Of a DNA stretch of 64,000 nucleotides, positions 3,546 to 39,727 are shown piece after piece. This DNA is from a virus. A program made the translations under genes and the position numbers. The first letter of the stretch is position 1; each line of letters starts with the position of its first letter. The notes below the pieces were generated by a model. That model had not been told where the DNA came from. It saw only the letters and a list, made by a program, of their open reading frames with translations, and did not search any database. The stretch lies in the IMG/VR virus record IMGVR_UViG_3300017757_000001, one strand, 5' to 3'.

Positions 3546-4087
3546 TTTACATATCCTAATATTCCTGTTACTGCATCATAAGTAACAATTGTAGGCATAT
3601 CTTGTGTTGGAAGAGTATTTATTTTAAAATTTTCAAAAACTGATCCAGGTTTTTCAGTTAATTGAAATGCTGCACTACCTGTTACTAAGAAACTACCTGT
3701 AATTTCTGCTGGGTGGTTAGGTAATGCTATTGTTCCTGATCCTGAGTATGGAAATGAAACACCTTGTGAATCGGTTATTTCTATGTTTATACCATTAGCA
3801 CCATTAGGAGTAATACTATTTATAGCATTACCAGTTAAATATACTTCTGTAGTATTAGACGTTATTACACTACCATTATACAAAAATTGTATACCACTAC
3901 CATAACCTGGCATAGTAGATAAGTCAATACTATGAGAATAATAAGATTGACTAGCAAAGTAAAAATTTATTTTACTACCTTCTAAAGAACTTGAAGCATA
4001 TAAAGATTGCCAGTTAGTATCAACTTCATACCAAGTTAATTCTGATCCTTTATTTATCCTTAATAATATGTCTGGTACAAATGGCAT
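1..4087 (-). CDS. Giant collagen-like (Gly-X-Y, Ser/Thr-rich) tail fibre protein, 3' end outside the window (>1360 aa)
   Basis: Not in the ORF track because there is no stop in the window. ATG at 4087 abuts the upstream TAA. Reads [29 protein letters not shown] (R-x-x-KGS-x-LT-x-x-E-x-D-x-N fibre attachment motif), then [12 protein letters not shown]... triplets; the same frame is read at position 2. Confidence 0.85.
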
Positions 4088-13697: not shown

Positions 13698-14306
13698 TTA
13701 TTTAATAGGACAAAATCCTTTGGCACATAAAATTTCTGTAATAATAGAATTTACTTTTGTATAATTTTTTTGGTTTGAAAAATCTAATCCTTCAGTTACT
13801 AAATGCATAAATGAATCTGGATTTGAGGGTGTTGAAACAAAATCCCAACATAATAATTCAAAATCATCTTGTACTTCTTGTACTTCTCCCATTGGTTTTA
13901 AACTCCCCATCCCTCGAGAAGAAACACCAACTGTAATTCCATTTTCAATAAGTGCTTTTAATATATTTCCTGCTGGTGTTGGAAGTAATTCTATTTTACC
14001 CATTACTTTATCTCCATCCCACCACATATCTGTTATATTATGAGATACATTTTTTAAGTTAATAACTGTAGAATCAGGATGATCTAATTCGCCCATTGCT
14101 CTATGTTCTTTAACTAATACATCATACTTGTCAATTTCTCTTTCCCATAATTCTTTAGAATAATAACGACCATTACCGTTTTTAACCTCAGCAGTAGCTA
14201 ATATTCCTTCTACTAAAGGGTTACCTCTATCAGATGTATTATTTTCATTTAAAATATTTTTAGTAATATTAAATGCTTGTACTTCTACTAACTGTTGCTT
14301 GGCCAT
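13698..14306 (-). CDS. Prohead core protease, T4 gp21-like
   Basis: KNGNGRYY, GELDHP, VSH, GVSSRGMGS, DFVSTPS; start placed at MAKQQ (14306) rather than the track's 14363. Confidence 0.95.
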   Translation of the reverse strand: MAKQQLVEVQAFNITKNILNENNTSDRGNPLVEGILATAEVKNGNGRYYSKELWEREIDKYDVLVKEHRAMGELDHPDSTVINLKNVSHNITDMWWDGDKVMGKIELLPTPAGNILKALIENGITVGVSSRGMGSLKPMGEVQEVQDDFELLCWDFVSTPSNPDSFMHLVTEGLDFSNQKNYTKVNSIITEILCAKGFCPIK

Positions 14307-14310
14307 ATTA

Positions 14311-15399
14311 TTATTTATTTTCTTCTTCTTCATTCCTTGGAGCCCAATCAGCACCCATACCATTTTGCTCTTTCCAAGCTTCAGGATCCATTTCTGTTAC
14401 TACTTCTTGTGCTGTGTATTTTTTTCCACTCATCTTTTCATACAACTTTTCCATTTTTAATTTACGTTTATTTAAATCTTTAATTTCACGTTGCATTAAT
14501 TTAATTTTTTTACTATCAACTAACTCAGATAAACTTTCATCTTCACTAACCATATTTAATCTAGTTGTTTTTGACTCAATAATTTCATCAATAGTTGCAA
14601 TTTTTGTTTCCATTGCTACAATTTGAGATGCTTTATCAATTTCAGCTAATTTATTATCTAATGTTTGTTTTTTTTCTTTAATTGGTTTTCTTTTTTTAGG
14701 TGGTGTTGCTCCTAATGGGCCTTCTACTAAACTTACTAATGATATCATATTATTTTCTTTATTTTCATTTATATCTAAATAACCTGTTCCAATTCTCCCA
14801 TCAGGAAAATCTTTTTTGGTTGAGTCACCATGACCACTTGAAGCATATTTACCTTTAATTTCCTTGGGTTTTAAAGAAACAGCATCCTCTGTATAACCTA
14901 TACCTTCTATCCCAAATTGAGCTTTTTCAACATAATACATTGGATCTTTTTCAAGATTTTTTCTTACTATATCTTTTAATTCTTGTTCTGTTTTTTTAGC
15001 ATTTTTAGGATTTCTTAATTCTGTGTAGTATCCTCTTAAAAATTCTTCAAAATTCATATTATCGATAACAGCTTTATCTTTATAATCATACCCAGCTGTT
15101 TCTAAATCAACTACTTCTTTAGTTGGTTTTTTTTCAATAGCTTTAGCTTCTTCAGCTATTACATTCATATTTTCATCAAATATACTAAACCAATCAGGTT
15201 TTTCATTACTGGTATTAGCTACCATAATGTTTTCTGATATAACAGAACGTTGTTTTAATATTTTAGTTGCCTCAGAGAAAGTAGATGCACTACTAATCAT
15301 ATTGGGGTATATTCTTTTAGCTTCTTTTAAAAAGATAGATTTATTACCTTTACCTTTTTGAAGATTATTATATTGCTCTTGTAGTGTTTTTTGTTTCAT
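14311..15399 (-). CDS. Probable internal head / core protein
   Basis: K/E-rich, in the head module, multiple I-x-E sites, internal MISLVSLVE. Confidence 0.5.
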   Translation of the reverse strand: MKQKTLQEQYNNLQKGKGNKSIFLKEAKRIYPNMISSASTFSEATKILKQRSVISENIMVANTSNEKPDWFSIFDENMNVIAEEAKAIEKKPTKEVVDLETAGYDYKDKAVIDNMNFEEFLRGYYTELRNPKNAKKTEQELKDIVRKNLEKDPMYYVEKAQFGIEGIGYTEDAVSLKPKEIKGKYASSGHGDSTKKDFPDGRIGTGYLDINENKENNMISLVSLVEGPLGATPPKKRKPIKEKKQTLDNKLAEIDKASQIVAMETKIATIDEIIESKTTRLNMVSEDESLSELVDSKKIKLMQREIKDLNKRKLKMEKLYEKMSGKKYTAQEVVTEMDPEAWKEQNGMGADWAPRNEEEENK

Positions 15400-15404
15400 T
15401 ATTT

Positions 15405-15758
15405 TTATTTTAATAAGTCCTTTATATCTTTTATATAATCTAATACTAAATCTGTAGGTTTTACAACAGCATAAGACTTAGGATTGTTTGTATAGTAATC
15501 ACTTGTTTCATTTCTAGCGTTGGACAACATTTTATAAATATCATTCATTTCTTTCTCAATTAAATCAAATGCACCTATTCTTTCTTTATGAAAATTATTT
15601 AATGATTCTTCTTCCCATAATTTTTTTACTACTATACCGGATCCTTTAATTTTATCTGGTACTAATTTATATCCAAAATCTTTTGTATAGGTATTATTTT
15701 TAACACCATCCTTACCTGCTTTTGGACCTGGTCCTAATGTCGCACCTGGATCTTTCAT
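15405..15758 (-). CDS. Hypothetical head-module protein
   Basis: ORF coupled to its upstream neighbour by an ATGA overlap. Confidence 0.55.
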   Translation of the reverse strand: MKDPGATLGPGPKAGKDGVKNNTYTKDFGYKLVPDKIKGSGIVVKKLWEEESLNNFHKERIGAFDLIEKEMNDIYKMLSNARNETSDYYTNNPKSYAVVKPTDLVLDYIKDIKDLLK

Positions 15759-16369
15759 TTTTTCTTTTTCTTTTTCTTAAATGCATAAGGTGTTGCATAT
15801 TGCATTCCTGTACCTGCTGAAAATGTTGCTGATCCTGCTCCACCACCAGTTGAAGACATTTCATCTAATCCCCCACCTAATTCTCCTTTTAATCCTGTTG
15901 ACTTTAAAATTAATTCATATTCTGCAGGGTAATTTTTTCTTAAATGAGTTCTATAATCATTAAATGTTTTATTTAATTTATCAAAAATTTGAGCAAATTT
16001 AGGATCATTAGCTACATCTTTATTTTTAGAGATAAATTTTACATCATCTCTCATTTCTGTAAAATTTCTAAATATTTTAGAAAAGGTAGGTAATCTATAT
16101 TGAGTAGAAACTGATCTACCTCCTGTATTTACTTCACCACCATAATCTGGGTTTAATTTTTCCCAATACATTGAGAAATTACCTGTAAAATAACTTCCTT
16201 TTGGAATTGGTCCAAATTTTTTTTCAATTTTCTTTAAAAATGATTCTGGAATTCTTGGATCTTCTACATAAATAACCCCACTAAACTCATCAGACTTTTT
16301 TTTAAAGTCTTTTTCATCTTGGGGTTCTACAAACTCTACTTCTTTTATGTTATATTTAAATTTATCCAT
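15755..16369 (-). CDS. Hypothetical head-module protein with a basic C-terminal tail (YATPYAFKKKKKK)
   Basis: ORF in the operon. Confidence 0.55.
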   Translation of the reverse strand: MDKFKYNIKEVEFVEPQDEKDFKKKSDEFSGVIYVEDPRIPESFLKKIEKKFGPIPKGSYFTGNFSMYWEKLNPDYGGEVNTGGRSVSTQYRLPTFSKIFRNFTEMRDDVKFISKNKDVANDPKFAQIFDKLNKTFNDYRTHLRKNYPAEYELILKSTGLKGELGGGLDEMSSTGGGAGSATFSAGTGMQYATPYAFKKKKKKK

Positions 16370-17219
16370 TAGCTTTTGATAATTCTTCTAAAAGACTATG
16401 ATATTGAAGTAAGTCAACTAGATGGTTTGATTTTATGTTAGTTCTTTTACCTGCTTCTTTAATTAATTCTTTTACCTCATTAAGTTTAATTTTAATAGCT
16501 TTATCTTTTATAATATCTATTTGTTCATCAATTTGATTTTTAATAGATATAACTTCTAAATTATAAAATTCTTTTAATTTTGAAGTACTATCAACTGTGT
16601 TTATAAATTCTTTTAAGATTAATTTTTGTTTATCATTTAAATCAGAATATTTATCATTAAATTTTTCTAATAATACTCTATAAGTTAATATACGAACATC
16701 TTTAGGATAATTTTTAAATTCTTCTATAATATCTTCTTTAACTGTATTTTTATTTACTTCTTTAGATGTTAAATGTTCTAATAATGTAACTTTATTATCT
16801 ACAATTTGATTAGGATTAACTACTTTTTCTGTATTATAAATTTCTATTAAAGAATATAATGAAGCTTGGGCTTTATAATTTGTTAATTTTGTTTTAAATA
16901 GATCTTCTAGATTATAATTTCTTTTTAATTCTTTAATTAAATTATATTTTTCTCTTTTTAATCTAGTTCTATTCATCTTTTTAGATGATTCCAAAATTGT
17001 ATTCAATATAGCAGATGCTCTTGATTCTGATATTCCCTTAGATTTAAATACTAATTCGTATAATTTATACTCTTTTCCTAATTCTGTGTTTACAAAATTT
17101 TCTTTAAGTATTTTAATAGCTTTTGATTCTGTTCCCGCTAAGGTATCCGCTGTAATTTTTCTAACTAAGATTTCGAACAAAATTCCAGTGTTCTTATATT
17201 TTGAGTGTTTGATATACAT
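16362..17219 (-). CDS. Head-module protein immediately downstream of the portal gene (core-like)
   Basis: KHSKYKNTGILFEILVR N-terminus, helical composition; late motif at 17235-17243. Confidence 0.55.
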   Translation of the reverse strand: MYIKHSKYKNTGILFEILVRKITADTLAGTESKAIKILKENFVNTELGKEYKLYELVFKSKGISESRASAILNTILESSKKMNRTRLKREKYNLIKELKRNYNLEDLFKTKLTNYKAQASLYSLIEIYNTEKVVNPNQIVDNKVTLLEHLTSKEVNKNTVKEDIIEEFKNYPKDVRILTYRVLLEKFNDKYSDLNDKQKLILKEFINTVDSTSKLKEFYNLEVISIKNQIDEQIDIIKDKAIKIKLNEVKELIKEAGKRTNIKSNHLVDLLQYHSLLEELSKANG

Positions 17220-17253
17220 CAATATTTATTTTTTTATAAATATATTAAAATTT

Positions 17254-25958: not shown

Positions 25959-26401
25959 TTTTTACCTTTACCTTTATCTTTACATTTAGAAGGAGTAGGT
26001 CTACAGGATGGATATTTTGCTCGTTTTTCACCTTCTTTTCTACCACAAGATTTATATTTCATCTTGCCTGTTTTTTTATCCTTTCTTCCAGTATTACAAT
26101 CAACCCATCCCCCTCCTTTACCTGGGGCTCCTTGTCTTTTAAACCATTTATTTAAGGATTCATCAACAACTTTTTGAAGTCTTTTATACCCTGAGCCATA
26201 AGGTGATGATTTTCCATCATGATTATCAACTACATTTTCTTTAACTCCCTTCCAGATATTTCCTTTTCTACACCTTACTACAGCACCTGATTTATAAGCA
26301 GAGGGTTTGTCAAATTTACGATCGGCGATACGTAAACATCTATCCCTTTTTTTCTTTTTTTCAAGAATTACTTCTCTTATTATGTTATTTAATCTACTCA
26401 T
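25940..26401 (-). CDS. Basic Cys-containing probable internal head protein
   Basis: ILE/VKE/VDE-separated basic modules (PSAYKSGAVVRCRK; WVDC..CGR..YPSCRP). Confidence 0.55.
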   Translation of the reverse strand: MSRLNNIIREVILEKKKKRDRCLRIADRKFDKPSAYKSGAVVRCRKGNIWKGVKENVVDNHDGKSSPYGSGYKRLQKVVDESLNKWFKRQGAPGKGGGWVDCNTGRKDKKTGKMKYKSCGRKEGEKRAKYPSCRPTPSKCKDKGKGKKWGKTK

Positions 26402-27171
26402 TACCAAAAACCACTAAATGATGATTTTAATCCTAATAATTTAGCATATCTAGGAAGTCTACAACTCCAATACCCTGCTTTTGTTCTGTCTTTTTTCTGT
26501 GAACATTTATGTCTTTTAGCAAATGCAGAACGTGCTTTTGAGTCATTTATTTTTGCTCTTAAACCACCAGATCCAAATCTAACAGTTTTAACTTTTTTAG
26601 TTTTAGGATCTTTAACATATACTTTATAAGCTTTTCCACCTGAAGATGAGCGCATTGGTTTTCCTATTGGTCTATTGTCTTTTTTCTTAGCTTTTTTCTT
26701 TTTTGCTTCTATAATATTAACTATTCTTTCTTCAATAGATTCAAATTTCATATTATCCATTTCATCACGAACCCATTCTTTCTCATTATCACCTAATTGG
26801 TCATAATCCATTCCGAATTCCATATTCGCTAACTCATCTTCAAGATCCATTTGCTCATTTAATTCAATAGGAAAATCTAATGGTACTTTTTCACCTTCAA
26901 ACATACCATAATGTCCTAAATCAGTTTCTATAAGAATTTCTTTATCATCTCCTATTACTTCAAGTATTCCTCTACTATATAATGACCTTGCTTCTGCAAA
27001 TAAATTAAAGTATTCTTGTGAACCTGCCCTATATAAATGTTCAGTTAACGGTCTATTATTGTCCATATGGAATTTTAATCCTTCAGACAATATAGCCTTT
27101 GGAGCTTTATTTTCATTAAGTACTAACGCAGTACTTTTAGTTTTACATGAGCCGCATCCACATTTACACAT
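26401..27171 (-). CDS. Probable internal head protein with a basic C-terminal domain of the type seen in T4-like marine phages
   Basis: KVYVKDPKT..VRFG..ARSAFAKRHKC..AGYWSC; N-terminal CKCGCGSC; LNE/LTE sites. Confidence 0.6.
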   Translation of the reverse strand: MCKCGCGSCKTKSTALVLNENKAPKAILSEGLKFHMDNNRPLTEHLYRAGSQEYFNLFAEARSLYSRGILEVIGDDKEILIETDLGHYGMFEGEKVPLDFPIELNEQMDLEDELANMEFGMDYDQLGDNEKEWVRDEMDNMKFESIEERIVNIIEAKKKKAKKKDNRPIGKPMRSSSGGKAYKVYVKDPKTKKVKTVRFGSGGLRAKINDSKARSAFAKRHKCSQKKDRTKAGYWSCRLPRYAKLLGLKSSFSGFW

Positions 27172-27178
27172 AATATTA

Positions 27179-28291
27179 TTAATTAAATTTGTTATAAGGT
27201 AAAGTTATGTTTTTACCTACTAATTTTCCATTTCTATATAATGATTTTTCAGTTTGAAGTAAAGCTCTTAAACCTCTTGTATTTCTTTTGGTCATATCAT
27301 GTCTAATATTTAATACAGGCATTGCTCCATCTTCTTTAACATCTTCTATATCTTCATATACTTTTGAAGCTTCAATAATTAAATCATCTCCTTGTAATGA
27401 AAAATCACTTTCTTTAAATGTACCCATAACAACTGGTACTTTATCATTACCAAATATAGCTTGATAAGTATCTATTTCAGGTAAATCACTAACTATAACC
27501 CCTGGGATTTTTTCATTTGTTACTTTATTCCACATTCTTATAATAGTATCATCTTCATTTCCTCTTTTATCTACTAAAGGTTTGTATGAAATTTCATCTC
27601 CTAATTTTCCTGATATAATAGCATCTAATAAATTCATTACTTCATCTTTAAATCTTACATCTGCTGATTCCCAATAAATAGCATTCATTTTCTTTAATGA
27701 TACACCACCTAAATCTTTTTCTCCTCTGTAAAAATTAGCATCTGATTTTGAATATGCTGTTGTTGAAGTTCCTGTTCCTTTTGTTTCAGTAACATCATTC
27801 CATTCTATTGATCTATTTCCATCTGTTATAATAATATTTTTAGGACCATCTTCAAGATATTTATTTATATTAGTTACAAATATATCTTCATTTTCTAATC
27901 CTGCTGATTTTTTACCTTGAATTCCTGATGGTTTAACAGCTATTTTTACATCACCATAAGATATATAACCTAAACTTGAAAATGAAGAAGGTTGGGGATT
28001 ATATTCAAATCCCTCTAATTTTTCTATATTATCAATGTATGATTGACGTTCTTGTCTAGGAACTAATAAGTGAAAATTTAAACCTTTATCTTTAAAAGCC
28101 TCATCATCTAATTTAAAAGTATCTTTTATTATTTTTATAGCTATGGCTTTATCTTCAGCTTTAGTTTCATTCATAATACCAGTTACCATTTCGAATAACA
28201 TTTTTTTATCATTAGGATCATCCATATCTGGGTATCCTTTAGGAAATTTATATGCTACACTATTTAAAAATGTAATTAATGGATCTATCAT
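27179..28291 (-). CDS. Putative PD-(D/E)xK-like endonuclease with an N-terminal leader
   Basis: AGLENE...KSDA...VSLKK arrangement; leader YKFPKGYPDM...MNE. Confidence 0.5.
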   Translation of the reverse strand: MIDPLITFLNSVAYKFPKGYPDMDDPNDKKMLFEMVTGIMNETKAEDKAIAIKIIKDTFKLDDEAFKDKGLNFHLLVPRQERQSYIDNIEKLEGFEYNPQPSSFSSLGYISYGDVKIAVKPSGIQGKKSAGLENEDIFVTNINKYLEDGPKNIIITDGNRSIEWNDVTETKGTGTSTTAYSKSDANFYRGEKDLGGVSLKKMNAIYWESADVRFKDEVMNLLDAIISGKLGDEISYKPLVDKRGNEDDTIIRMWNKVTNEKIPGVIVSDLPEIDTYQAIFGNDKVPVVMGTFKESDFSLQGDDLIIEASKVYEDIEDVKEDGAMPVLNIRHDMTKRNTRGLRALLQTEKSLYRNGKLVGKNITLPYNKFN

Positions 28292-28295
28292 ATTT

Positions 28296-28751
28296 TTATA
28301 CTTCTATGTCAACATCAACGTCTGTTTCTTCAGCAGGTATATCTTCACTACCCCCACCATCAACATTAACGTCTGTTTCTGATTTTGATTTAGGACCATA
28401 ACGTAAAATACGACCTATAGCTTCTGCTGCTCTTTCTTCTTCAGGTAAATTAAGTAAATAATATTTTTTACCCTCTATTTGAGCAATCCAACTTCTAGAA
28501 GAATAAATAAGATAAAATTCTTGATCATTTTTCAAATTAATTCTAAATGTTGTTGGTCTAGGTGATACCCAACCTATAGATGATAGAAAACTATCAAAAT
28601 CATAAGTTAGTAAATTAATAATTACTTCTTTTAATTCTGGAAATTTTGTAAGTTCATCATACTCAACTGCTGCAGCTTCTCCTTGCTTAACACTAGCATA
28701 GACTTGAGGAACTAATACTCTGATTTTCTCTCTTAACTCCGCTGCTGTCAT
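28296..28751 (-). CDS. Hypothetical protein with an acidic tail
   Basis: ORF; MTAAELREKIR leader. Confidence 0.55.
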   Translation of the reverse strand: MTAAELREKIRVLVPQVYASVKQGEAAAVEYDELTKFPELKEVIINLLTYDFDSFLSSIGWVSPRPTTFRINLKNDQEFYLIYSSRSWIAQIEGKKYYLLNLPEEERAAEAIGRILRYGPKSKSETDVNVDGGGSEDIPAEETDVDVDIEV

Positions 28752-28753
28752 TT

Positions 28754-30208
28754 TTACTTTTGTTTTGCTGTTGGACCTTTTCCTCCGCCTTTTGATTTAT
28801 ATGATGCTACTGCTCCTGCTATTGCTGAAGCTGCTTTTTTAGATTTACCTTGTTTTCTAATTTTTTTAACTAATGAATCATATGATTCTTCAATATCCTC
28901 TTCATAATCTCCATCTGCTAATTCACCACTATCAAAAGGATCTCGACTACTTTCAGCATCTCTTCCTTGCATGTGTTTGTCTGCTCTTGCGTAGGCGTCT
29001 TCTTTAACATCTTTTTTACCATCTTGATTTTCATCTTCAGCATCGATTTTTTTATCCCAAAATCCTTTAGGTAAACCTTCTAATATTTTTGAAATTCTAT
29101 CTTTAGTAGTATTTTCATTTACTTTAGCAGCATCAAAATATTTTGCTGGTTTAATATCTACTATTCTTTGCACACCTGTGTCAAACCATTTTCTAATTGC
29201 ATCATCAACATTTTTTCCACCTAAAAAGAAACTTAACATATCTTCTAAACCTTTAGATCCTTCTTTTGTAAAGTTATCAAATTCTTCATCTGAGCCAAAT
29301 TCCATTTTATCATCAGATGTAAATAAATATTCTGGTTTATTTTGCATATTAGACATTGAAAATGGCATTGCACTACCTTCATGCCCACCCATATGTCTTT
29401 CTCTTAAACTAACTACATCTGCTCTTGGTGTTTCATTATATCTAAAGAAAATAACATATCTCTTTTTATTACCCATTCCATCTTGTGCTAATACTACTTT
29501 ACTTGCAAATGCTTTTCCATTATAAGCACGGCGCCATTTATCCATATTCATATTTTCTGTAATTTTTTCATTTTCATCAATAGCATCTGTAGCTATATCT
29601 ACTACAGCATCAATTTGTGGTTCTTTAATTTCAAAATCAAGGTAATGTTTAGCCCCAACTAATGCATCTTTTGCCTTGAATACTTTTGCTTGCCACCATG
29701 ATGGGAAATCTACTTCTCCCATACCATCAAATTTATCTATCATACCATATAACTCCATAGCATATTTACCAATTCTATATAAATCAGCTTTTAACATATG
29801 GGGTTCATTATCTTCATGACCTATATCTAAATCTTCTTCTAAGTTTGAAACGTCATGTTTTTTATATTTGTCACCATCTTTTCCTTTAACAACTTTTTCT
29901 TTAAGATTTTTTTCTATGGCAGCACCTCTAGTTTTTTCATAATCTGATAATTTGCCATCTTTATTTAAATCTGCTTTTTTTGGATTTTTTAAAGAGTCTT
30001 TTATTAATTCTGTAAGTCTATTAGGTTTTGCTTTCATTGATTCTGTTTTGTTTTTTACCATATTAGTAGCACGACCATACATTACTGCTTCGGCATCTTT
30101 ACCATACTTTTTAACAAGACTACGTTTATTATCCTTCATTTTCATGATAATATCTTCACGGTCTTTTACCTCAGCAGGTGTAAGTTTGCGTTCGTGTACT
30201 TTATCCAT
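28754..30208 (-). CDS. Modular probable internal head protein
   Basis: Segments bounded by LKE/LEE/ITE/VNE/ILE/IEE; EF-hand-like DLNKDGKLSDYE. Confidence 0.5.
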   Translation of the reverse strand: MDKVHERKLTPAEVKDREDIIMKMKDNKRSLVKKYGKDAEAVMYGRATNMVKNKTESMKAKPNRLTELIKDSLKNPKKADLNKDGKLSDYEKTRGAAIEKNLKEKVVKGKDGDKYKKHDVSNLEEDLDIGHEDNEPHMLKADLYRIGKYAMELYGMIDKFDGMGEVDFPSWWQAKVFKAKDALVGAKHYLDFEIKEPQIDAVVDIATDAIDENEKITENMNMDKWRRAYNGKAFASKVVLAQDGMGNKKRYVIFFRYNETPRADVVSLRERHMGGHEGSAMPFSMSNMQNKPEYLFTSDDKMEFGSDEEFDNFTKEGSKGLEDMLSFFLGGKNVDDAIRKWFDTGVQRIVDIKPAKYFDAAKVNENTTKDRISKILEGLPKGFWDKKIDAEDENQDGKKDVKEDAYARADKHMQGRDAESSRDPFDSGELADGDYEEDIEESYDSLVKKIRKQGKSKKAASAIAGAVASYKSKGGGKGPTAKQK

Positions 30209-30218
30209 TATTAAAGAT

Positions 30219-31082
30219 TTATTTTATTAGCCCTGCTAATTTTTTAAATCTTTGTACTTCTTGTAAGTTTAATGCAGATTCAGCATCTAATACTCCAGCT
30301 ACATCACTTTCACCTCCAGTAACATCTAATTCTACTTCATTAGTAGCAACAACGTGTGCTCTAGTGTAATAAGTAATTGTATTTCCAATTTGGTCAAGTA
30401 ATTTTTCATCACCCATACCTTTAGCTTTTTCTTGGGCCTTAGTTAATAATCCTAATACAGCTGCTGTTTCTGAATCTTCTCCAGCTAATTCTGAATCTAC
30501 TTCAATTTCTGATTTGTCGGATACATCATCAACAGTAACGTCATCTTCTACATCTACGTCAACATTAACATCATCTTCTACATCTACATTAACATCTTCT
30601 TCTTCTGCTTCTTTAAGATCATCTTCTTCATAAGTAGAACCACGCATTCCTTCATCTATCTCTTCACCACGCATTGCTTCATCTACTTCCTCACCACGCA
30701 TTGCTTCATCTAAATCTTCTTCATTTAATCTTTTCTTCATTGCCACCACAAATTTTTCGATCTTTGTAAGATAATCTTCATGATCTTCACGTGGTAATCC
30801 TCTCATAAAATTAGCAATTTCTCTCATCTGTTCATTGTAATCTTTTCCATCACCGAATTCATTTAATGTAGTTTCATTAACATCATCTTTAAAGTCTTTT
30901 TTAAGTTTAGATAACTTATCTTCATTATCTTTAATATCTTTTTCAAGATCTTTAATATGGTCTCTATCATCACGGATAGCACCTTCCATACGTTCTTGTT
31001 CTTCTTTGTTTCCTTTTTTAGAATCTTCATCTTCTCTAAGTAGAGATGACTTGATAAATTCTTTTAATTCAGATTTTTTCAT
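30219..31082 (-). CDS. Acidic scaffold-like core protein
   Basis: MKKSELK leader, DEAMRGEE repeats, C-terminal RFKKLAG shared with the scaffold. Confidence 0.55.
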   Translation of the reverse strand: MKKSELKEFIKSSLLREDEDSKKGNKEEQERMEGAIRDDRDHIKDLEKDIKDNEDKLSKLKKDFKDDVNETTLNEFGDGKDYNEQMREIANFMRGLPREDHEDYLTKIEKFVVAMKKRLNEEDLDEAMRGEEVDEAMRGEEIDEGMRGSTYEEDDLKEAEEEDVNVDVEDDVNVDVDVEDDVTVDDVSDKSEIEVDSELAGEDSETAAVLGLLTKAQEKAKGMGDEKLLDQIGNTITYYTRAHVVATNEVELDVTGGESDVAGVLDAESALNLQEVQRFKKLAGLIK

Positions 31083-31134
31083 TATTTTTATTTTAGTTGG
31101 GTTTATTTATAAATATATAAAAATTATTAATCGT

Positions 31135-32412
31135 TTATTTTTTATTATTTTTTTCTTTTAGTTGATTTTTGTAAACTTCTTTTACTAGTTTTTCTAACTT
31201 AAGTAAGTCAGGACCTGCTGGTTTTTTTCTTGGTTTTCCATCTGGTGTATAACCACATGAACCTTCATTGATTTGACTTATTATATAATCTAAAGCAGCC
31301 TCTTTATCTCCATTGTGTAATTGATCAACAACTTTTTGACCTATCTCTGCATATTCACCATTAGTCTGTGAAGGACGTTCTCCAAACTTACTTTTAATAT
31401 CTAAATATCCTGAACCAATTATAACTAAGTCCTCATCTGGATCGTCTAGATCTTCATTTAATCTATCAAATTTTGAAGATTTTTCAAATTCATCTCTAGT
31501 TATTGGATTTATCTTAATATAATTTTTTACACCATTTTTACCCATAGTATAAGTACCAGTTTCATCAGTTATTTCTTCTCTACCTATTGCTTGATCATAT
31601 GTAAGTTGTGCTTTTTCTTTTCCTTTATTTTTTATAAATCGAATAGCTTCTTCGTGGAAATGAATTTCATCAGCATATTGGTCTGATATAGGACCACCTT
31701 CTGGTTCTGCTTCCTGTTCCATATCTCTATAAAGTTGTTCAAGATTTCTTTCTAAATCTTCTAACTCATACCCATCAACTAAATCTGCTGATTTTTGGTG
31801 TAATTCTTTTATAATATATTTTGTTCCTGATTCTAAACTATTAAAATCATCTAATTTTTTTAATTCTTTTTCTTTTCCATCTTTATCAACTGCAATTACA
31901 GAATCAATAGTAGATTTACCCATTCCATCATCACGTTTGCCTGCTAATTTTTGTTTTAGTTCAGATTTAGCTCTTCTTTTACTAACAAAGGCTTCTTTTA
32001 TTTCTTGAAGTTCTTTAGGGGTTGCAAAAAATGAAACTGAAGCTGCCCATGATCTATCATCATCAATATCGGTTTCATAATCAGAAACACTTCCATACTC
32101 ATAATCAAATTTATTAGTTATTTTATTTACTTTTTCAAATGCTTTTTGTAATTTTAAAATATCATCATTTTCAAAGTAATGATAACCTCTACCTGACATT
32201 CTTATATAATATCCTTTTCTACCATCTGACATAGAGCCTCTAACTCTATCATCAAATTCTAACCCTGTTTCATCATTTATAGTTTTTACTAATTTTTTAA
32301 GATCATCTTCTTCTTCCATTTCATAAGGAGAAAGAGAATTTTCATTTAATTTAGAATATGATTCTTCTAAATATTGTTTTTTTAAATAATTATGTATACT
32401 GAATTTTTCCAT
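31135..32412 (-). CDS. Modular probable internal head protein
   Basis: LNE/IKE/INE-bounded segments; late motif at 32433-32441. Confidence 0.5.
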   Translation of the reverse strand: MEKFSIHNYLKKQYLEESYSKLNENSLSPYEMEEEDDLKKLVKTINDETGLEFDDRVRGSMSDGRKGYYIRMSGRGYHYFENDDILKLQKAFEKVNKITNKFDYEYGSVSDYETDIDDDRSWAASVSFFATPKELQEIKEAFVSKRRAKSELKQKLAGKRDDGMGKSTIDSVIAVDKDGKEKELKKLDDFNSLESGTKYIIKELHQKSADLVDGYELEDLERNLEQLYRDMEQEAEPEGGPISDQYADEIHFHEEAIRFIKNKGKEKAQLTYDQAIGREEITDETGTYTMGKNGVKNYIKINPITRDEFEKSSKFDRLNEDLDDPDEDLVIIGSGYLDIKSKFGERPSQTNGEYAEIGQKVVDQLHNGDKEAALDYIISQINEGSCGYTPDGKPRKKPAGPDLLKLEKLVKEVYKNQLKEKNNKK

Positions 32413-33038: not shown

Positions 33039-33845
33039 TTATTTTTTATATCCTACTGCTAGGGTGTTTATTTTATCTTTTGGTTTTTGTTCTTTTACTT
33101 TAGGTAATTCAGGTAATTGAGTTAAATATAATATTGATACTTCTTGAATTATAAAATTTAATTGTGTATGTGATAATTTTTCATCACTATATAAAGTTTT
33201 AATAAATTCATATGTTTTATTTAAAAAAAATGACATTGGGGGATTAACAGAATTAGAATTTTGTTTTAATTTTAATAAATACATTTTAAAATTATCTAAT
33301 TCATCTTTTGAAAATTTTCTATCTAAATAATAATCTTTTATTTTATTTATAATTGATTTTAATTCTTTAGCTTTTACTAAATTATTAATAACTTTTTTTA
33401 CTTTTGGGGTTCTAACATTATTTGATTGGGGAGTTGGTAATGATGAAATTGTTTCATTTTCAACAGGTAATGTATTATTATCTTCTTTTATAGGGTATAT
33501 ATTTATTTGTTCTAAACCCTTTATTACACATTTTAAATATAAATTATTAATTTTATCATCACTATATAAATTTTCAATAGCTGAAATAAATTTATTTGTA
33601 ATTATACCTGGTGTTAAAACTTGGGCTCCCATCATATTAGTACCAGTTTCTAATGTTTTACATCTATTTATTATAAATTTTAATTCTTGTATTGAAATAG
33701 TATTTTTTAAAAATTGTTGTTCTATAACATTAATTAACTTTTCTGCATCTGTTAAATCATATATTTTAGGTGATTTAGTTGGTTTGTATTCATTCCTGTT
33801 TCTAGGAGAACCACCATTATACCCTATATTATTAATAATACCCAT
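33039..33845 (-). CDS. Hypothetical protein with duplicated helical segments
   Basis: Repeated LYSD(D/E)K and Q/D-EL-x-F/N-(I/F) segments. Confidence 0.5.
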   Translation of the reverse strand: MGIINNIGYNGGSPRNRNEYKPTKSPKIYDLTDAEKLINVIEQQFLKNTISIQELKFIINRCKTLETGTNMMGAQVLTPGIITNKFISAIENLYSDDKINNLYLKCVIKGLEQINIYPIKEDNNTLPVENETISSLPTPQSNNVRTPKVKKVINNLVKAKELKSIINKIKDYYLDRKFSKDELDNFKMYLLKLKQNSNSVNPPMSFFLNKTYEFIKTLYSDEKLSHTQLNFIIQEVSILYLTQLPELPKVKEQKPKDKINTLAVGYKK

Positions 33846-36742
33846 TAAAGTCCTAATTTTTTTAATTGAGAAATAGTATCAGCAGCAGATGTATGTAGTA
33901 TTCCTATACCCCCCTGTGATATCCATTGATCTATATTTGATTTTCTATCATCAATTAATATGTGATTAGGAGCAGCATAATTTTGTTTATGTGATGCTTG
34001 TGCTAATGTTAATTTTATACCAGGCATATTATTTCTTACCCATAATCTTTTACCTAATCTAGATGTTGAAGATCTTGAAGGAGAAGATAATAACTCTGTA
34101 TCATAATCTTTAATATAATCCCAATATTGTTTTCCATCTTCCATCCAAGGCATTCCTACCCAAAATCCAACTTTACCAGTTCCATCAATTAACTCCCAAA
34201 ATTTTTCTTTACCGAATTTTTTTTCATAATCTCTAGGTGCTATTCCTTTTGAATATTTTTTAAATGATTCATCAAAATCAGTTAATACTCCATCCATATC
34301 AGAAAATATTTTATAATTTTCTGACTCCACTATTGGGTGATCCATTTCAATATCTTTTGCAAGCATATCACTATTAATAGCTTCTTCTAAACCCATAGCT
34401 AATTCTCTAGCATATGCATTTAAACCAAATGGATCTTTTGTTTTTTTCTTTTCCTCTATACTAGATGTAATATCGCCATCTAAAGAATCAGTCCAATTTC
34501 TAAATACCATATTACCTTCTTGATAAGCTTCTCTTTCAATTGCATCTAAATCTTCACTATCATTAGTATTATTAGTATTAATGTTATTTAATCTATCTTC
34601 TAACCATTGAGTATGGTGAACCATTTCATGAGAAAATGATCTTACTATATCTTTTGGATGTCTACCTTCAGTATATAAAGCTATTATTTGACTATTAGGA
34701 TCATAATAAGCAGTTTTTCCAAAAAAATCTTTAGCATTTTCATTATCCCCATCTATAAATTCTATTTTAGGTAAAGGTTCTATATTTCTACCCTTTTCTA
34801 TCATATAATTAGTTAAATCTTGAATCATTTGTTTATAATCAATATAATCAGAATATGTAGCATTTTCATTTAAATATTCTTTATCTAATTGTGGGTGATA
34901 TCCTAAATATACATTTTTAATATCCCCAAATGACTCACCGTCACCTCTTAATTCTGCAGGAACAATATTATCAGGTGTTTCATACCAATATTGTACATCA
35001 TACCCTCCATCACTTTTCCAAGTAACAATTAAACCTCTTTCATATTTTTCTGAATCTGCTTGTAATATTACTGGTTCATCTACTGGTAATACAATATTAT
35101 TTTCTTTTATTAATTTTATTATTTTTTCCTCTAAAGCAATTACAGGTGTTGATGTTTTAAAATCTTTTTTTCTCATAACAGTTTTTGCAACTAAATCAAT
35201 ATCATTAGGCATTACATTTATAGCAAATGGAATGTTAATGTTACTATTAAAATCTTTTACTACAGCATCAAAGTCATTATCAATTTTAGATAAAGATTTA
35301 CCATGTTTTTTATGTAAACGTTTAAACATACCTATGAGTTCAGCTACTGATATAGGTTTATTATTACGTTTATCATTTAATCTATCTAAAAAATGTTTTG
35401 TAAATTCAATATCAATTCCTAATTTAGCAAATAATTTATCAGCATAATCTTCAATACTATCTAATTGAGTTTTAGTTACATTTTCATTTATACTCATCAT
35501 CATATCATATGATTTTGTTTTTAAATCATTTAATTGTCCTACAAAATCAGTTCTTCTTAAAACTTTAAAAGCTAAATTTTCTACACTATACTCTCCTCCT
35601 TTTAAAAGACCTGATGATCTCATATTTCTTAATCTTTCTTTTATTGAATTAACTAAGTCAATTACTTTTTGATATTCACCCCTATTAAATAATATTTCAA
35701 TTTGAGGTAATTGAGTTAAATATCCTTCAGCTTTTGATTTAATATCCTCTTTATCTATAACAATTTTATTTAAAACAGGTTCATTAATCCATTCATCATT
35801 TAATATTGAATACAATCCTGAAGCTGTATGATCATCGTTTTCATCCTCAACATAAACTTCAACTGGGTACCCAAACATATCTATATCATGTGTTTGGTTC
35901 CAAATTGATTTTTTAGCTAAAAAGTAATCTCTTGCAAATTCTTCATTATCTGCTATTTGGGAATAATCTAATACTAAATGTAAATCAACATCTGAAAATT
36001 TAGACCAATTATAATTTGCTAAACTCCCAGTTAATTTAATATCTTTTAATATTGTACCTTCAGGTAATTCTAATGAATCAAAAAAATCTTGAGCAATAAC
36101 TAATAATTTTTCTCTAATTTCAGGTTTTAATTTATTATCCTCCCAAACATCTGCAACTAGTGTGTCTTGTATATTAAATGAGTTTATAACTTCAGAAGGT
36201 ATATCTTCATTTAATTTTTCAGCTGGTTTTAGTATATTATAAACTTCAATTTTTTCATCTATTGTTAATTCAAACGGAAGATATTTAATAAATTCTTCTT
36301 GAGATGTTGTTAATGCTTTTCTAGCATTTGTACCGCTCATATTTGGATCATAAGTAGGAATAACTTTAACTTCAATATTAGGATATTTTTCTTTTAAATT
36401 TCCTGTTCTAGCTGCTACATCCAATAAATCATCATCTCTTCCTTCTCTATAACCAATAACAAAATAAATAGTATCTTGTGGGTTATTTTTTGCTAAACGA
36501 AGAATATCTCCAATAGGTTGTTTAACTGGTTCTATTTTAACCTTATTTGCTAAATAGTTGTGGTATATATCCCATACTAAAGTAGATTCTTCTTGATCCA
36601 TTCCTTCTCTTTCTTTAGCACCTACATAAATAATAAATTCATCAATTTCAGGATAATCATCTAATGCCTTTTTTACTATAGCAAAATGTCCTGCTGTTGG
36701 AGGTTTAAATCCTCCCCCGTATGCTGCTAATACTTTACCCAT
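33845..36742 (-). CDS. Six-domain polyvalent enzyme: HIGH nucleotidyltransferase + Pol-beta NTase + BECR-like RNase + unknown + HExxH metallopeptidase + HAD 5'(3')-nucleotidase
   Basis: GGFKPPTAGH..SGT; TGSLANYNW..SDVDLH; FTKHFLDRLNDKR..KTVMRK; HEMVH..E-x-EA; DMDGVL..LIDDR. Confidence 0.8.
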   Translation of the reverse strand: MGKVLAAYGGGFKPPTAGHFAIVKKALDDYPEIDEFIIYVGAKEREGMDQEESTLVWDIYHNYLANKVKIEPVKQPIGDILRLAKNNPQDTIYFVIGYREGRDDDLLDVAARTGNLKEKYPNIEVKVIPTYDPNMSGTNARKALTTSQEEFIKYLPFELTIDEKIEVYNILKPAEKLNEDIPSEVINSFNIQDTLVADVWEDNKLKPEIREKLLVIAQDFFDSLELPEGTILKDIKLTGSLANYNWSKFSDVDLHLVLDYSQIADNEEFARDYFLAKKSIWNQTHDIDMFGYPVEVYVEDENDDHTASGLYSILNDEWINEPVLNKIVIDKEDIKSKAEGYLTQLPQIEILFNRGEYQKVIDLVNSIKERLRNMRSSGLLKGGEYSVENLAFKVLRRTDFVGQLNDLKTKSYDMMMSINENVTKTQLDSIEDYADKLFAKLGIDIEFTKHFLDRLNDKRNNKPISVAELIGMFKRLHKKHGKSLSKIDNDFDAVVKDFNSNINIPFAINVMPNDIDLVAKTVMRKKDFKTSTPVIALEEKIIKLIKENNIVLPVDEPVILQADSEKYERGLIVTWKSDGGYDVQYWYETPDNIVPAELRGDGESFGDIKNVYLGYHPQLDKEYLNENATYSDYIDYKQMIQDLTNYMIEKGRNIEPLPKIEFIDGDNENAKDFFGKTAYYDPNSQIIALYTEGRHPKDIVRSFSHEMVHHTQWLEDRLNNINTNNTNDSEDLDAIEREAYQEGNMVFRNWTDSLDGDITSSIEEKKKTKDPFGLNAYARELAMGLEEAINSDMLAKDIEMDHPIVESENYKIFSDMDGVLTDFDESFKKYSKGIAPRDYEKKFGKEKFWELIDGTGKVGFWVGMPWMEDGKQYWDYIKDYDTELLSSPSRSSTSRLGKRLWVRNNMPGIKLTLAQASHKQNYAAPNHILIDDRKSNIDQWISQGGIGILHTSAADTISQLKKLGL

Positions 36743-37532
36743 TTAAAAATTGTTTTAATCTCATTTGTGCCTCTTCTTTAGATATAGTGTATTCAACTAC
36801 ATCATATATAAAATCATCACTTAACATAGCTTGGATTTCTTCTTTATCTTTAGCCTTTCTTTCATCAGATTTTTTCTGTTGTGATGGTGTTTTAGGTTTT
36901 GTGCCCGTGGGTTTGAATGGTTCAAGATATTTATCTATGATTTTATCTATATCTTGCATTCTATCATCTAAGGTATTAGCTACAGCAACAAAATTATCAC
37001 CAAATAAATCAGCATATTTAGGTAAATTATCTGTTACACTTTTCCAAGTACGCATTACAATAGCAGGTGCTAAACTTCTATCTTTACCCTCTGATTTTTC
37101 ATATCTATCTTGGTTTTGACTTAGGGAACGTTGTAAATCTGTATAAACATAAAGCATAAATACTTCATATCCTGCTTCTTCTAATTCATTTTTTAATTTA
37201 GATGTTGCATTATATGAAGCTCCTGTACCGTCTAAAATAAATGATTCTTTTCCATCTATAGTAGCATCTACATCACCTTTGAATTGTTTATTTGCTGCTG
37301 CCATTTGTTTAGCTTGCTCACTTCTTTCTTCAGGAGTAGCATTTTTTAAATCTAGAGTAACATTAGCTTTTTTTAATAAAGGAACATAAATATCATCTAC
37401 ATTTAATATTTTTATACCTCCTAAATCTAAACCCCGTAATATATAGCCTTTACCTGCTCCTGGGGCTCCTGCTAATATAATGGCTTTTGGTTTATTTATT
37501 GCTTCTTTTAAAATGTTAATTAAGCTTATCAT
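36735..37532 (-). CDS. P-loop kinase, zeta-toxin/AAA_33-like
   Basis: AGAPGAGKG, NVDD, ILDGTG, MLYVYT..S..N..R; MISLINILKE leader; late motif at 37546-37554. Confidence 0.8.
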   Translation of the reverse strand: MISLINILKEAINKPKAIILAGAPGAGKGYILRGLDLGGIKILNVDDIYVPLLKKANVTLDLKNATPEERSEQAKQMAAANKQFKGDVDATIDGKESFILDGTGASYNATSKLKNELEEAGYEVFMLYVYTDLQRSLSQNQDRYEKSEGKDRSLAPAIVMRTWKSVTDNLPKYADLFGDNFVAVANTLDDRMQDIDKIIDKYLEPFKPTGTKPKTPSQQKKSDERKAKDKEEIQAMLSDDFIYDVVEYTISKEEAQMRLKQFLNG

Positions 37533-37553
37533 AATATAATTTTATTATAAATA

Positions 37554-38324
37554 TTACAATTTTCTTTTAGCTGTAGTTTTAAATTCAGTAAATATAGGAG
37601 AATGTCTTGGATTTTCTAAATCAAATAATTTTTTTACTGTTTTAAATATATCTATGTTGTCTTCTTGTGAACGTTTTGATTCATACATTTCCCATCCTTT
37701 ACCTTGCATTGCGCCTTCCTTAGGTCCTCGTTTTGAGGATTTTAACCATAGTATACCATAATGGTCTGCTTTTTTACCATAACATTCTTCATAACATTTT
37801 CCATAAACTGCTGTTTGTAAATCGTAAGTTGTTTGTAAATGATTTGATGTTTTAAAATCAATAATCCATAATTTACCATCTATTTCACATACCATATCAC
37901 AAGTACCTGCTACTTTTAATTCATCAGAAAATAAATGTACTTCGGTTTCAATTAAAGTTGGATTATAGGTTTCCCACCAATCTACAAACTTTAAAAACAT
38001 TTGCCATACGTCAGGATTATACATTGGAATTCCATTTTGTAAAAAATTTAATTCTTTACCATTAAGATAATCTTCACACATTTCATGTACTTGAGTACCT
38101 TCTTCTCCTGCTTTTCTAACAATCCAATCTGCACTATATCCTACTTTTTTTAGCCAATCTTGAAAGAATTTACCTTTAGGGTAATAACTTAAAACATATG
38201 TTATTGATGGGTAATATTTACCATTTCTTCTATAATATCTAGAATCAGGTAAGGTAATTTGTTTTGCATCTTCAGAAATTTGTAATATTCTGTTATAAGA
38301 TTTTTTTATTATTTTTTTCGTCAT
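37554..38324 (-). CDS. PD-(D/E)xK exonuclease (RecB/Cas4-like phage exonuclease)
   Basis: YPSIT, GTQVH, AGTCD, IIDFKTS, LQ-x-A-x-Y. Confidence 0.88.
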   Translation of the reverse strand: MTKKIIKKSYNRILQISEDAKQITLPDSRYYRRNGKYYPSITYVLSYYPKGKFFQDWLKKVGYSADWIVRKAGEEGTQVHEMCEDYLNGKELNFLQNGIPMYNPDVWQMFLKFVDWWETYNPTLIETEVHLFSDELKVAGTCDMVCEIDGKLWIIDFKTSNHLQTTYDLQTAVYGKCYEECYGKKADHYGILWLKSSKRGPKEGAMQGKGWEMYESKRSQEDNIDIFKTVKKLFDLENPRHSPIFTEFKTTAKRKL

Positions 38325-39250
38325 ACTGAGAATAACTTCTTTTCCATTAAATTATATTGTGTTAATGGGGTTGTATTTTGGATTAATTTTGTAAAATGAT
38401 TAAATCCCATTTCACTAGGGTCTTTCCCTTTTAATTCTACTAAATATACTTCTTTACCTTCATTTATAAATTCTTCAGCAAATCTAATTGCTTGTTTTAT
38501 AGCATCTGTATCTAACGCTATGTATATTTTTTTAACTGTTGATGTTACTATCTTTTTCATTAAATTAGATTGAATATTTTTACCTAATAAAGGTATTGCA
38601 TTTCTTTTTATAGCAATAGCATCAAACATTCCCTCACATAATACAAGAGGTAAATTCCAATTTATTAAATGTTCATTAGGGATTATATTTCTTGAGGAAT
38701 CTGGGTTTCTAAATTTTATATATGGTTCTTTTTCAAATGAACGTGCTGTAAAATAATTTAATTTTCCTAAATAATCATAAGATGGAATAATAATCATATT
38801 ATGATAATTTCCGTATTCACAATACCCTATATTATATTTTATAATATCGCTATCTGTAATACCTCTACTTTTTAAATAATAATATGCCTGTTTCCATGTT
38901 ATAGTTTTATCATCTGGAAATATAGGAACAAATTCTTCAGGTAATTTTACATCTATTGTTTTTTCTATTATTTCATATTCTGTTTCTTCTGCTACTAATT
39001 TATATAATTCTGTAAATTTATCTGGTGGGGCTTTTACTTGTTTAAATAAATTTGATATTCTAGTACCTTTTTTATTACATACCCAACAATGCCATGGATT
39101 ATATCCTTTTTTATTTTCTGAAAAATTAACTTCTAATTTAGGTTTAGTATGATTACAAAAAGGACAATGGTAAGATTGATTACCCCTTGCAGTACGTTTA
39201 CCGTTGCCTAATACAGAATTAACTAGGTTAACTAATAGTTCATTTATCAT
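38321..39250 (-). CDS. DNA primase (Zn ribbon + TOPRIM)
   Basis: CPFC..HCWVC, YLKSRG, CEGMFDA, LDTDA, KDPSE. Confidence 0.92.
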   Translation of the reverse strand: MINELLVNLVNSVLGNGKRTARGNQSYHCPFCNHTKPKLEVNFSENKKGYNPWHCWVCNKKGTRISNLFKQVKAPPDKFTELYKLVAEETEYEIIEKTIDVKLPEEFVPIFPDDKTITWKQAYYYLKSRGITDSDIIKYNIGYCEYGNYHNMIIIPSYDYLGKLNYFTARSFEKEPYIKFRNPDSSRNIIPNEHLINWNLPLVLCEGMFDAIAIKRNAIPLLGKNIQSNLMKKIVTSTVKKIYIALDTDAIKQAIRFAEEFINEGKEVYLVELKGKDPSEMGFNHFTKLIQNTTPLTQYNLMEKKLFSV

Positions 39251-39256
39251 ATGGGG

Positions 39257-39286
39257 AATATACGGAAATTATTTTATGTCTCCAAA
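39257..39286 (-). promoter_or_regulatory. Bipartite early/middle promoter TTTGG-N18-GTATATT
   Basis: Immediately upstream of the primase, implying a near-leaderless transcript. Confidence 0.75.
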
Positions 39287-39727
39287 GTCACGTGTAAAAA
39301 ACTTACCTAATATATTATCATTAAAATACTCATCTGGTTTTTGTAGAACTTCATATAAAAATTGATATTTAGTTTCAAAATAAGTTAAAGATTTTTTACT
39401 AGTACATAAATGCAATATTTCTCTTTTAAAATTTTTTTTATCTTCTTTTTTTAAGAGTTCTGTAAGTTGTTTATTGGATCCAAAATATGTTTTCCAATCA
39501 GATTCTTTTGAAACTATTTTAAATTTAGGAGGTCTACCTTTTTGACCCTCAAATATTTTTAATTCTTTTTTACCTAATTTTTGTTTACGAGTAAAAACAA
39601 GAAATTTTTTACCAATATATTTTTTATTTGAAGGGATATGGGTTGTAACATATACAAATCCCATTATGTTAGTATCAAAATCATTAATGGAATTTATTTC
39701 TTTATTTCTATATATCCACTTATCCAT
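39269..39727 (-). CDS. GIY-YIG (Seg-like) endonuclease-family protein
   Basis: GFVY...KKYIGKK...WKTYFGS...E..YQ...FN. Confidence 0.8.
   Translation of the reverse strand: MDKWIYRNKEINSINDFDTNIMGFVYVTTHIPSNKKYIGKKFLVFTRKQKLGKKELKIFEGQKGRPPKFKIVSKESDWKTYFGSNKQLTELLKKEDKKNFKREILHLCTSKKSLTYFETKYQFLYEVLQKPDEYFNDNILGKFFTRDFGDIK

Follow-up and report, generated by a model that had tools for sequence, protein, structure and literature searches.

The 64,000-nucleotide window analysed here (IMG/VR virus record IMGVR_UViG_3300017757_000001) comes from an uncultured, A/T-rich (about 28-31% GC) marine T4-like myovirus, and practically all of its genes lie on the minus strand, among them an open reading frame (ORF) of 965 residues that overlaps the gene of a P-loop kinase by 8 nt. 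The 965-residue protein is a chain of five or six unrelated enzymes, with five identifiable enzyme-type modules, and its module boundaries coincide with tripeptides of the form phi-x-E, where phi is a hydrophobic residue and the three positions are P3-P2-P1 of a candidate cleavage site. An earlier note on this DNA, made from the sequence alone, had read the protein as a polyprotein cut at such sites, and comparison of homologues revealed shuffling at the sites throughout the family. The junctions are probably cut by some protease. The full model, in which the protein would be a capsid-targeted cargo polyprotein that is cut by the S77-type prohead protease and injected, is our leading reading, held tentatively and at a little short of an even chance. 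The ORF is not an assembly artefact, because the identical 965-residue sequence recurs on three metagenomic contigs, the longest of which has 144 kb. Its modules, together with the kinase gene, are as follows.

33845..36742, minus strand: ORF of the 965-residue polyprotein
36735..37532, minus strand: zeta-toxin/AAA_33-type P-loop kinase gene, 265 residues (Pfam PF06414)
36215..36742, minus strand: D1, residues 1-176, HxGH nucleotidyltransferase with a PPAT/NaMNAT-like fold (Foldseek and motifs)
35492..36205, minus strand: D2, residues 180-417, Pol-beta-superfamily nucleotidyltransferase, optional insert (phrog_36119)
35135..35482, minus strand: D3, residues 421-536, putative BECR-fold (RelE/RegB-like) module with H-F-x-D-R-x4-R (structure comparison)
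34874..35125, minus strand: D4, residues 540-623, small beta-rich module, optional insert, followed by a disordered linker
34460..34864, minus strand: D5, residues 627-761, minimal gluzincin with HEMVH and a downstream Glu (structure comparison and motif)
34325..34459, minus strand: spacer, residues 762-806, with I-E-E 762, L-E-E 785 and I-V-E 804
33848..34324, minus strand: D6, residues 807-965, HAD NT5C-type 5'(3')-nucleotidase (phrog_2643)

The domain calls of the earlier note all hold, at least at the level of fold or motif. D1 is modelled at a predicted local distance difference test score (pLDDT) of about 88 and was the only part of the whole model for which Foldseek reported a match, with E 2e-6 against PDB and TM 0.74-0.81 depending on the target. 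Its motifs TAGH (residues 16-19) and SGTNAR (136-141) are invariant in homologues; its Pfam score of 13.4 bits falls under the cut-off, a family profile run against PDB sequences found nothing past PPAT at E about 0.04, and a tblastn search of phage isolates with D1 matched immuto phages alone. D2 is assigned by its match to phrog_36119 (1.5e-43) and by the Pol-beta signature GS-x11-DVD, TGSLANYNWSKFSDVDLHL; the Pfam MTPAP-like score of 15 bits is below the cut-off, and model confidence is low. Maribacter phage Molly and Lak megaphages have D2 as a gene of its own, and it is missing from the commonest homologues, which are about 660 residues long. D3, modelled at pLDDT about 95, matches RelE (Z 6.4 over 76 residues at 2.9 A, and 5.8) and T4 RegB (Z 6.1 over 110 residues, the whole length of D3), VIA-align scores of 6.1-6.4 lying in a range that possibly reflects merely a common arrangement. 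The H-F-x-D-R-x4-R motif is kept in the Melnitz and phiM12 homologues, and this conserved H...DR...R pattern is suggestive of a BECR-type RNase. D3 is a virus-only module, which also occurs alone or differently fused in phages; phiM12 gp159, which carries it, is too diverged to inform on junctions.

D4 (pLDDT about 60) is found in only a few homologues, and a search for its relatives yielded none that was reliable. D5, again at pLDDT about 95, resembles Wss1 (Z 8.2), PprI/IrrE (Z 8.0), SPRTN (Z 7.5) and the ArdC metalloprotease (Z 6.8); residues H705, E706, H709, E736 and E738 are invariant, and the zincin is present in all 120 of the best full-length homologues. A Foldseek search with the D3-D5 model returned no match at E <= 0.001. 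D6 matches phrog_2643 at 8.9e-23 and carries DMDGV at 815-819, with S886, K898 and DD931-932 invariant; Pfam NT5C was matched in three family members. The spacer between D5 and D6 is Cys-free and stands in place of a Cys4 mini-module found in most homologues, where the equivalent points read TDSLNE, NTPLNE and KDINE. This mini-module (about 40 residues, CxxC...CxxC, Pfam DUF5661 in some members, for example P0058 residues 424-464) sits between the zincin and the HAD domain and is bracketed by two phi-N-E sites.

All candidate sites named in the earlier note were found at the residues given there, namely LNE177, INE418, LEE537/IKE545, LNE624 and IEE762/LEE785/IVE804. Outside the spacer, the junctions are placed as follows.

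36206..36214, minus strand: junction 1, L-N-E, residues 177-179; pLDDT <50 at 175-179; breakpoint q176-178 in most homologues
35483..35491, minus strand: junction 2, I-N-E, residues 418-420; pLDDT <50 at 416-422; breakpoint q417-418
35126..35134, minus strand: junction 3, L-E-E, residues 537-539; breakpoint q539
34865..34873, minus strand: junction 4, L-N-E, residues 624-626, start of the zincin module; E626 invariant

E420 of junction 2 and L537 of junction 3 are nearly invariant, and junction 3 comes after the last strand of D3 and before the helix that holds IKE545. Structure prediction, a check that had been suggested for these sites, put those at 177, 418, 537, 624, 762 and 804 into low-confidence linkers: in both structure models all proposed junctions fall within low-pLDDT segments that have no regular structure, and pLDDT is below 50 across 592-633, 755-769 and 773-807. 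The caveat that such triplets are common was also borne out, as [LI]xE occurs at chance within the 965-residue protein (15 observed against 13.2 expected).

Comparative evidence for the junction rule comes from the family, which is drawn mostly from marine metagenomes and is very large (the whole protein had more than 3283 matches, and the D3-D5 part at least 3462 clusters at 50% identity). When 120 homologues were mapped by BLAST, breakpoints recurred at q176-178, 417-418, 539, 624 and about 789-806. The commonest form of the family, the one of about 660 residues, is D1-D3-D5-(Cys4 mini-module)-D6; D2 and D4 are not found in every member, and the same breakpoints also take other inserts. As judged from these sequence comparisons, the modules are real, independently mobile and shuffled like cassettes. 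A set of 43 non-redundant homologues contained 145 phi-N-E tripeptides, of which 82% stand at shuffling breakpoints, against a background of 10.8%; phi-S/E/Q/K/A-E are enriched there too (42-66%), and phi-D/P/G/W/V-E are not. The contexts of phi-N-E are non-homologous, as in RPPVNE, MMSLNE, VIALNENA(T/S)Y, TDSLNE, NTPLNE, EGVLNEGKYD and KDINEQ. Among more divergent representatives of clusters at 50% identity, phi-x-E stood immediately before the zincin in 87 of the 115 representatives with enough upstream sequence, P2 being N in 69 of them and otherwise K, T, E, Q, R or M, and immediately after it in 60 of the 80 in which the downstream anchor motif was found. Thus P3 and P1 are kept in these representatives and P2 drifts, which is the pattern of the L/I-X-E rule of T4 gp21 (PMC9026906). 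The 14 sites examined at the nucleotide level are encoded by eight different 9-mers; synonymous changes occur in each of the three codons and follow background usage, which speaks for selection at the peptide level and against a recombination signal in the DNA.

The same motif ends short N-terminal leaders. Among representative clusters with an N-terminal D1, 48 of 66 have an amphipathic leader of 13-16 residues, and in 45 of these 48 the leader ends in phi-x-E, as in MNQLTKFLVDGILNE|G and MSLVNELIKGLLPE|E. The upstream kinase, a zeta-like enzyme as had been proposed, was confirmed by Pfam PF06414 (Zeta_toxin; 61.7 bits against a cut-off of 22.3, E 8e-17) and by its Walker A sequence GAPGAGKG; its gene has the 8-nt overlap, and it bears a leader of its own.

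37503..37532, minus strand: kinase leader MISLINILKE, a candidate capsid-targeting sequence or propeptide, with L-K-E at residues 8-10

This leader is similar to the leaders on the scaffold and on nearby candidate internal proteins, a likeness that supports the reading in the earlier note. In the metagenomic locus L005 the kinase keeps LLKE\|A despite a longer leader, which there belongs to a leader family common to three downstream genes of unrelated sequence. Leaders of like style are carried by the scaffold (MNREFLKE\|AI), by the major capsid protein (MCP; MSQLNSLLE\|S) and by several neighbours, and they also precede modules that stand alone, such as the NT5C nucleotidase of Flavobacterium phage immuto, a separate gene there (…LLLEE\|S), and the Molly nucleotidyltransferase (MNLKTLVE\|T). 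Synteny of the kinase gene is conserved in loci L003-L005. In the homologue P0270, a bona fide member of the family, the kinase forms an internal module with L-K-E on either side, in ...NLKE\|QTGKPK... ahead of it and in ...VLKE\|DESQ between it and the HAD domain; the L-K-E of the kinase leader is an internal junction here. At the kinase C-terminus (36735..36742) the protein of the window ends ...KQFLNG* and its relatives ...FLNS*, where the fused version has ...VLKE\|D, and the split between the two genes may have occurred at a former junction. A frameshift fusion of kinase and polyprotein was also considered and rejected: the polyprotein frame is +1 to that of the kinase, and no slippery site, read by eye, fits the overlap.

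Short amphipathic leaders ending in phi-x-E are also found on many K/E-rich ORFs, of otherwise unknown type, at 26401..32412 and 14311..17222 (minus strand), for example MKKSELKE, MEKFSIHNYLKKQYLEE, MDKFKYNIKE and MTAAELRE, and further phi-N-E sites occur within these ORFs. Taken together, the two regions look like a large locus of internal proteins, that is, capsid cargo. A protein of 256 residues (26401..27171, minus strand) starts MCKCGCGSCKTKSTALVLNE\|NKAP, with a phi-N-E site directly behind a Cys-rich N-terminal peptide. In addition, the scaffold-like protein (12386..13504) and an acidic protein of 287 residues (30219..31082), both on the minus strand and 17 kb apart, have leaders ending in L-K-E and a common C-terminus, RFKKLAG(L/I)I, which may be a core- or capsid-binding tag. 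The C-terminus of the polyprotein, QLKxLGL, bears only a loose resemblance to RFKKLAG(L/I) and was not used as evidence.

The phage encodes a protease, mentioned in the earlier note, that belongs to the T4 gp21 family, and the relative immuto has a Peptidase_S77 protease as well.

13698..14363, minus strand: T4 gp21-family prohead serine protease, the candidate processing enzyme (Pfam Peptidase_S77, PF03420, E 9.9e-31; phrog_207, 1.3e-60)

The MCP (10341..12353, minus strand) has 670 residues. The MCP of T4 has 521, and the N-terminal region of the phage protein appears to be similar to the gp23 delta-domain (…KWGKTGLLEGL…MILENQ…QLVTE\|D). That the protein is longer suggests an inserted domain.

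A promoter-like motif precedes the kinase gene, downstream of two genes of replication type.

37546..37553, minus strand: promoter-like motif, TATTTATA when read on the coding strand, 13 nt before the ATG of the kinase gene
37554..38324, minus strand: PD-(D/E)XK exonuclease
38321..39250, minus strand: primase

The late motif claimed for the kinase needs correction: the literal TATAAATA near this gene is on the plus strand, and in the orientation of the gene the site reads TATTTATA, the reverse complement of the T4 late-promoter core. In this orientation TATTTATA recurs, often as TA-TATTTATA-A, 6-60 nt ahead of 12 genes on the minus strand. Among these are the portal gene, several genes of the head and tail regions, the kinase gene and two phi-N-E-rich unknowns downstream; the primase and exonuclease genes lack it. 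The plus-strand TATAAATA sites are at 7899, 10252, 17235, 19172, 21955, 25752, 31108, 32433, 37546, 42873, 57163 and 60449. This motif, conserved and intergenic, may be a late or middle promoter of this phage group. Because it precedes the kinase and structural genes and not the primase and exonuclease genes, kinase and polyprotein look like a separate transcription unit with a type of promoter common to structural genes.

Several known systems resemble parts of this arrangement. In T4, diverse internal proteins share only a capsid-targeting sequence of 10-19 residues, which gp21 removes after L/I-X-E and by means of which foreign proteins, too, can reach the head and then the host (PMC9026906, PMC3012670); T4 Alt, an ADP-ribosyltransferase (ART), is likewise a gp21-processed, injected head protein (PMC9026906). 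Similar to IPI-III and Alt, the present system belongs to a T4-superfamily phage with a Peptidase_S77 protease, has unrelated proteins with leaders ending in L/I-x-E, includes ART modules among its family members and comprises enzymes that would plausibly be useful at injection. Processing of the T4 leader, though not its targeting, is blocked when Asp stands at P1. However, T4 uses one leader per small protein, whereas here many enzymes share one ORF with a protease-type site at each junction, the modules are shuffled as cassettes, and the copy in the window is leaderless. The polyvalent proteins of phages and conjugative elements, for which autoprocessing by the MPTase was predicted (Iyer, Burroughs, Anand, de Souza and Aravind, 2017; PMC5512222), also place many unrelated effector-type domains on one polypeptide, and virion delivery is predicted for both. 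The overlap in domain types that the earlier note had pointed out was found, comprising the zincin metallopeptidase, Pol-beta nucleotidyltransferase, putative BECR-type RNase and ART-PolyVal, the last of these in family members (PF18760 in 2 of 46, not in the protein of the window). On the other hand, PMC5512222 describes no conserved L/I-x-E junctions, targeting leaders or T4-like hosts, and HxGH nucleotidyltransferase and NT5C modules are not typical members there. For the 965-residue protein no Pfam MPTase-PolyVal match was reported; the fold of D5 resembles the ArdC MPTase at the Z of 6.8 given above.

In phiKZ-like giant phages, a protease related to gp21 processes ejection and inner-body proteins at S/A-x-E (PMC9026906, PMC10052503). 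Multiple prohead-protease cuts after Glu in proteins that are retained in the head and ejected are a feature that the model proposed here would share, although phiKZ processing consists mainly of propeptide removal from structural and inner-body proteins and not of strings of enzymes with a site at each junction. A further parallel is S-SZBM1_140 of the T4-like cyanophage S-SZBM1, annotated as a 'cytidylyltransferase' and detected in CsCl-purified virions (PMC9146016). It is an HxGH nucleotidyltransferase with a leader of nine residues, MRFRQFIIE\|A (ending in I-I-E), encoded between helicase and primase genes; it differs in being a single-enzyme protein of 362 residues. Our literature searches found no description of the polyprotein family or of its junction rule, and, if the model holds, the family would join two known ideas, the capsid-targeted internal proteins of T4 and the polyvalent proteins.

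We propose a course of events in which cleavage, the responsible protease, packaging, injection and biochemical targets are those that we infer from the comparisons above. Kinase and polyprotein would be made from their own promoter, and both would enter the prohead core, in most members of the family by way of the leader of 13-16 residues, which would play the part that the capsid-targeting sequence has in T4. As the head matures, the prohead protease would strip the leaders and cut every junction. The freed enzymes would remain in the head, be ejected with the DNA, and act on host RNA, proteins and nucleotide/NAD-type pools before phage gene expression. More broadly, and with somewhat greater reserve than for the polyprotein itself, we consider it possible that marine T4-like phages have a general cargo system in which any cassette flanked by L/I-x-E behind a leader is packaged, cut and injected.

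Several observations weigh against the model of a packaged and injected polyprotein. The 965-residue protein has no N-terminal leader: it begins MGKVLAAYGGGFKPP, D1 starts at residue 3 and the HxGH motif at 16, so that its route into the prohead is unexplained; set against its relatives, this copy has lost a leader that is common in the family. Its gene stands directly after those of the primase and exonuclease, a replication-type neighbourhood. The MCP has no phi-N-E, and the head proteins of the phage as a group are not enriched for it; for this reason the Asn preference at P2 is unexplained by gp21 specificity alone, and known substrates gave no way of linking the motif to the prohead protease. 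No homology of S-SZBM1_140 to D1 past the superfamily level could be established (hhalign E 0.022, probability 2%), and it is an analogue only. The polyprotein interpretation of the earlier note stands in part, upheld by boundaries and sites, flexible linkers, the protease and the kinase leader, and opposed by the missing leader and the replication-type neighbourhood. The zincin also counts against it, being the hallmark of the 3462 clusters and having an intact HExxH...E in 120 of 120 best hits, and it invites another explanation of the junctions, in which the embedded D5 would cut them in cis or in trans, in the cytoplasm or after injection, so that no prohead protease would be involved and packaging would be unneeded. 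The closest folds to D5 (Wss1, SPRTN, IrrE/PprI and the ArdC MPTase) are regulated, site-specific proteases, MPTase autoproteolysis is a published prediction for polyvalent proteins (PMC5512222), and the strong P2 Asn preference is not seen in the head proteins of the phage. Such self-processing is nevertheless unlikely in our judgement: phi-x-E also ends the leaders of proteins that have no zincin, from the kinase, immuto NT5C and Molly nucleotidyltransferase to the neighbours, scaffold and MCP, and this gp21-form motif on head proteins among others would speak for the prohead protease. Moreover, gp21 is marked by a hydrophobic P3 and a Glu at P1, both conserved, with P2 left free; zincins, by contrast, generally select on P1'. 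The conserved amphipathic leader suggests targeting and not cleavage alone.

The protein might instead work at full length in the cytoplasm as an unprocessed enzyme of nucleotide, NAD or CoA metabolism or of RNA ends, either as a NadR-like NMNAT with kinase or as a PPAT with kinase, plus the nucleotidase, with phi-N-E as a linker or helix-cap remnant of shuffling. This would agree with the synteny with primase and exonuclease genes, which held in all relatives examined, with the PPAT/NaMNAT likeness of D1 beside an upstream P-loop kinase, and with the leaderless N-terminus and chance-level overall [LI]xE count of the protein. We regard it as improbable, since linkers between unrelated domains seldom conserve one tripeptide, the motif recurs at non-homologous junctions and on N-terminal leaders with synonymous codon variation, and a module set of RelE/RegB-like RNase, zincin, ARTs, NUDIX and plastocyanin is not one pathway. 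At the level of DNA, A/T-rich microhomology such as TTAAATGAA, the commonest version of the motif, could promote cassette exchange with no role for the protein sequence, as the A/T-rich genome and the position of the motif exactly at breakpoints might suggest. This we consider very improbable indeed, given the eight 9-mers for 14 sites with their synonymous changes, the variation of P2 with P3 and P1 kept, and the presence of the motif at the ends of leaders, where no exchange is involved.

The wider locus runs in the direction of transcription from baseplate and tail genes through a GIY-YIG gene, the primase and the exonuclease to the kinase and the 965-residue ORF, then through a series of K/E-rich unknowns to terminase, portal and small head proteins, and on to the gp21-family protease, the scaffold-like protein and the gp23-like MCP. 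The gene at 39269..39727 (minus strand) has its best PHROG match to phrog_447, labelled 'NAD synthetase'; homing-endonuclease PHROGs match it too, and the syntenic genes of relatives belong to Pfam SegE_GIY-YIG, so the label is probably misleading. At the start of the window, GC is clearly higher (0.42-0.43) than in the rest (about 0.29), and an open-ended ORF of 1362 residues (2..4087, minus strand) is located there.

With respect to function, a Pfam tally of 46 divergent family members comprised ART-PolyVal, Tox-ART-HYD1, NUDIX, NT5C, Pol-beta palm and Zeta_toxin domains, along with DUF6782 and M78 peptidases. In one member, P0119, the module inserted between phi-N-E sites at residues 209-291 is a plastocyanin/azurin copper-binding domain (PF00127, 3.6e-16), an electron carrier for which export would normally be needed. 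Taken with the RelE/RegB-like module and the zincin, the repertoire looks like a toolbox for host takeover or counter-defence and not like a single metabolic pathway, which is more general than the RNA end repair or nucleotide/NAD counter-defence suggested in the earlier note.

If the proposed model is true, a tailed dsDNA phage relies on its head protease to process a polyprotein and in this way to load and free an entire kit of enzymes, and the very large family is an untapped source of candidate enzymes of host takeover or anti-defence that act before phage transcription starts. If the more general cargo system exists as well, the ocean virome would hold an unrecognised reservoir of first-minute effectors, very large and rapidly shuffled, from RNases, ARTs, nucleotidyltransferases, kinases, nucleotidases and peptidases to even plastocyanin. 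In addition, the leader and junction rules would give a simple sequence signature by which the capsid cargo of uncultured phages could be annotated, and they suggest how the packaging of foreign proteins into T4-like capsids might be designed on a natural pattern.

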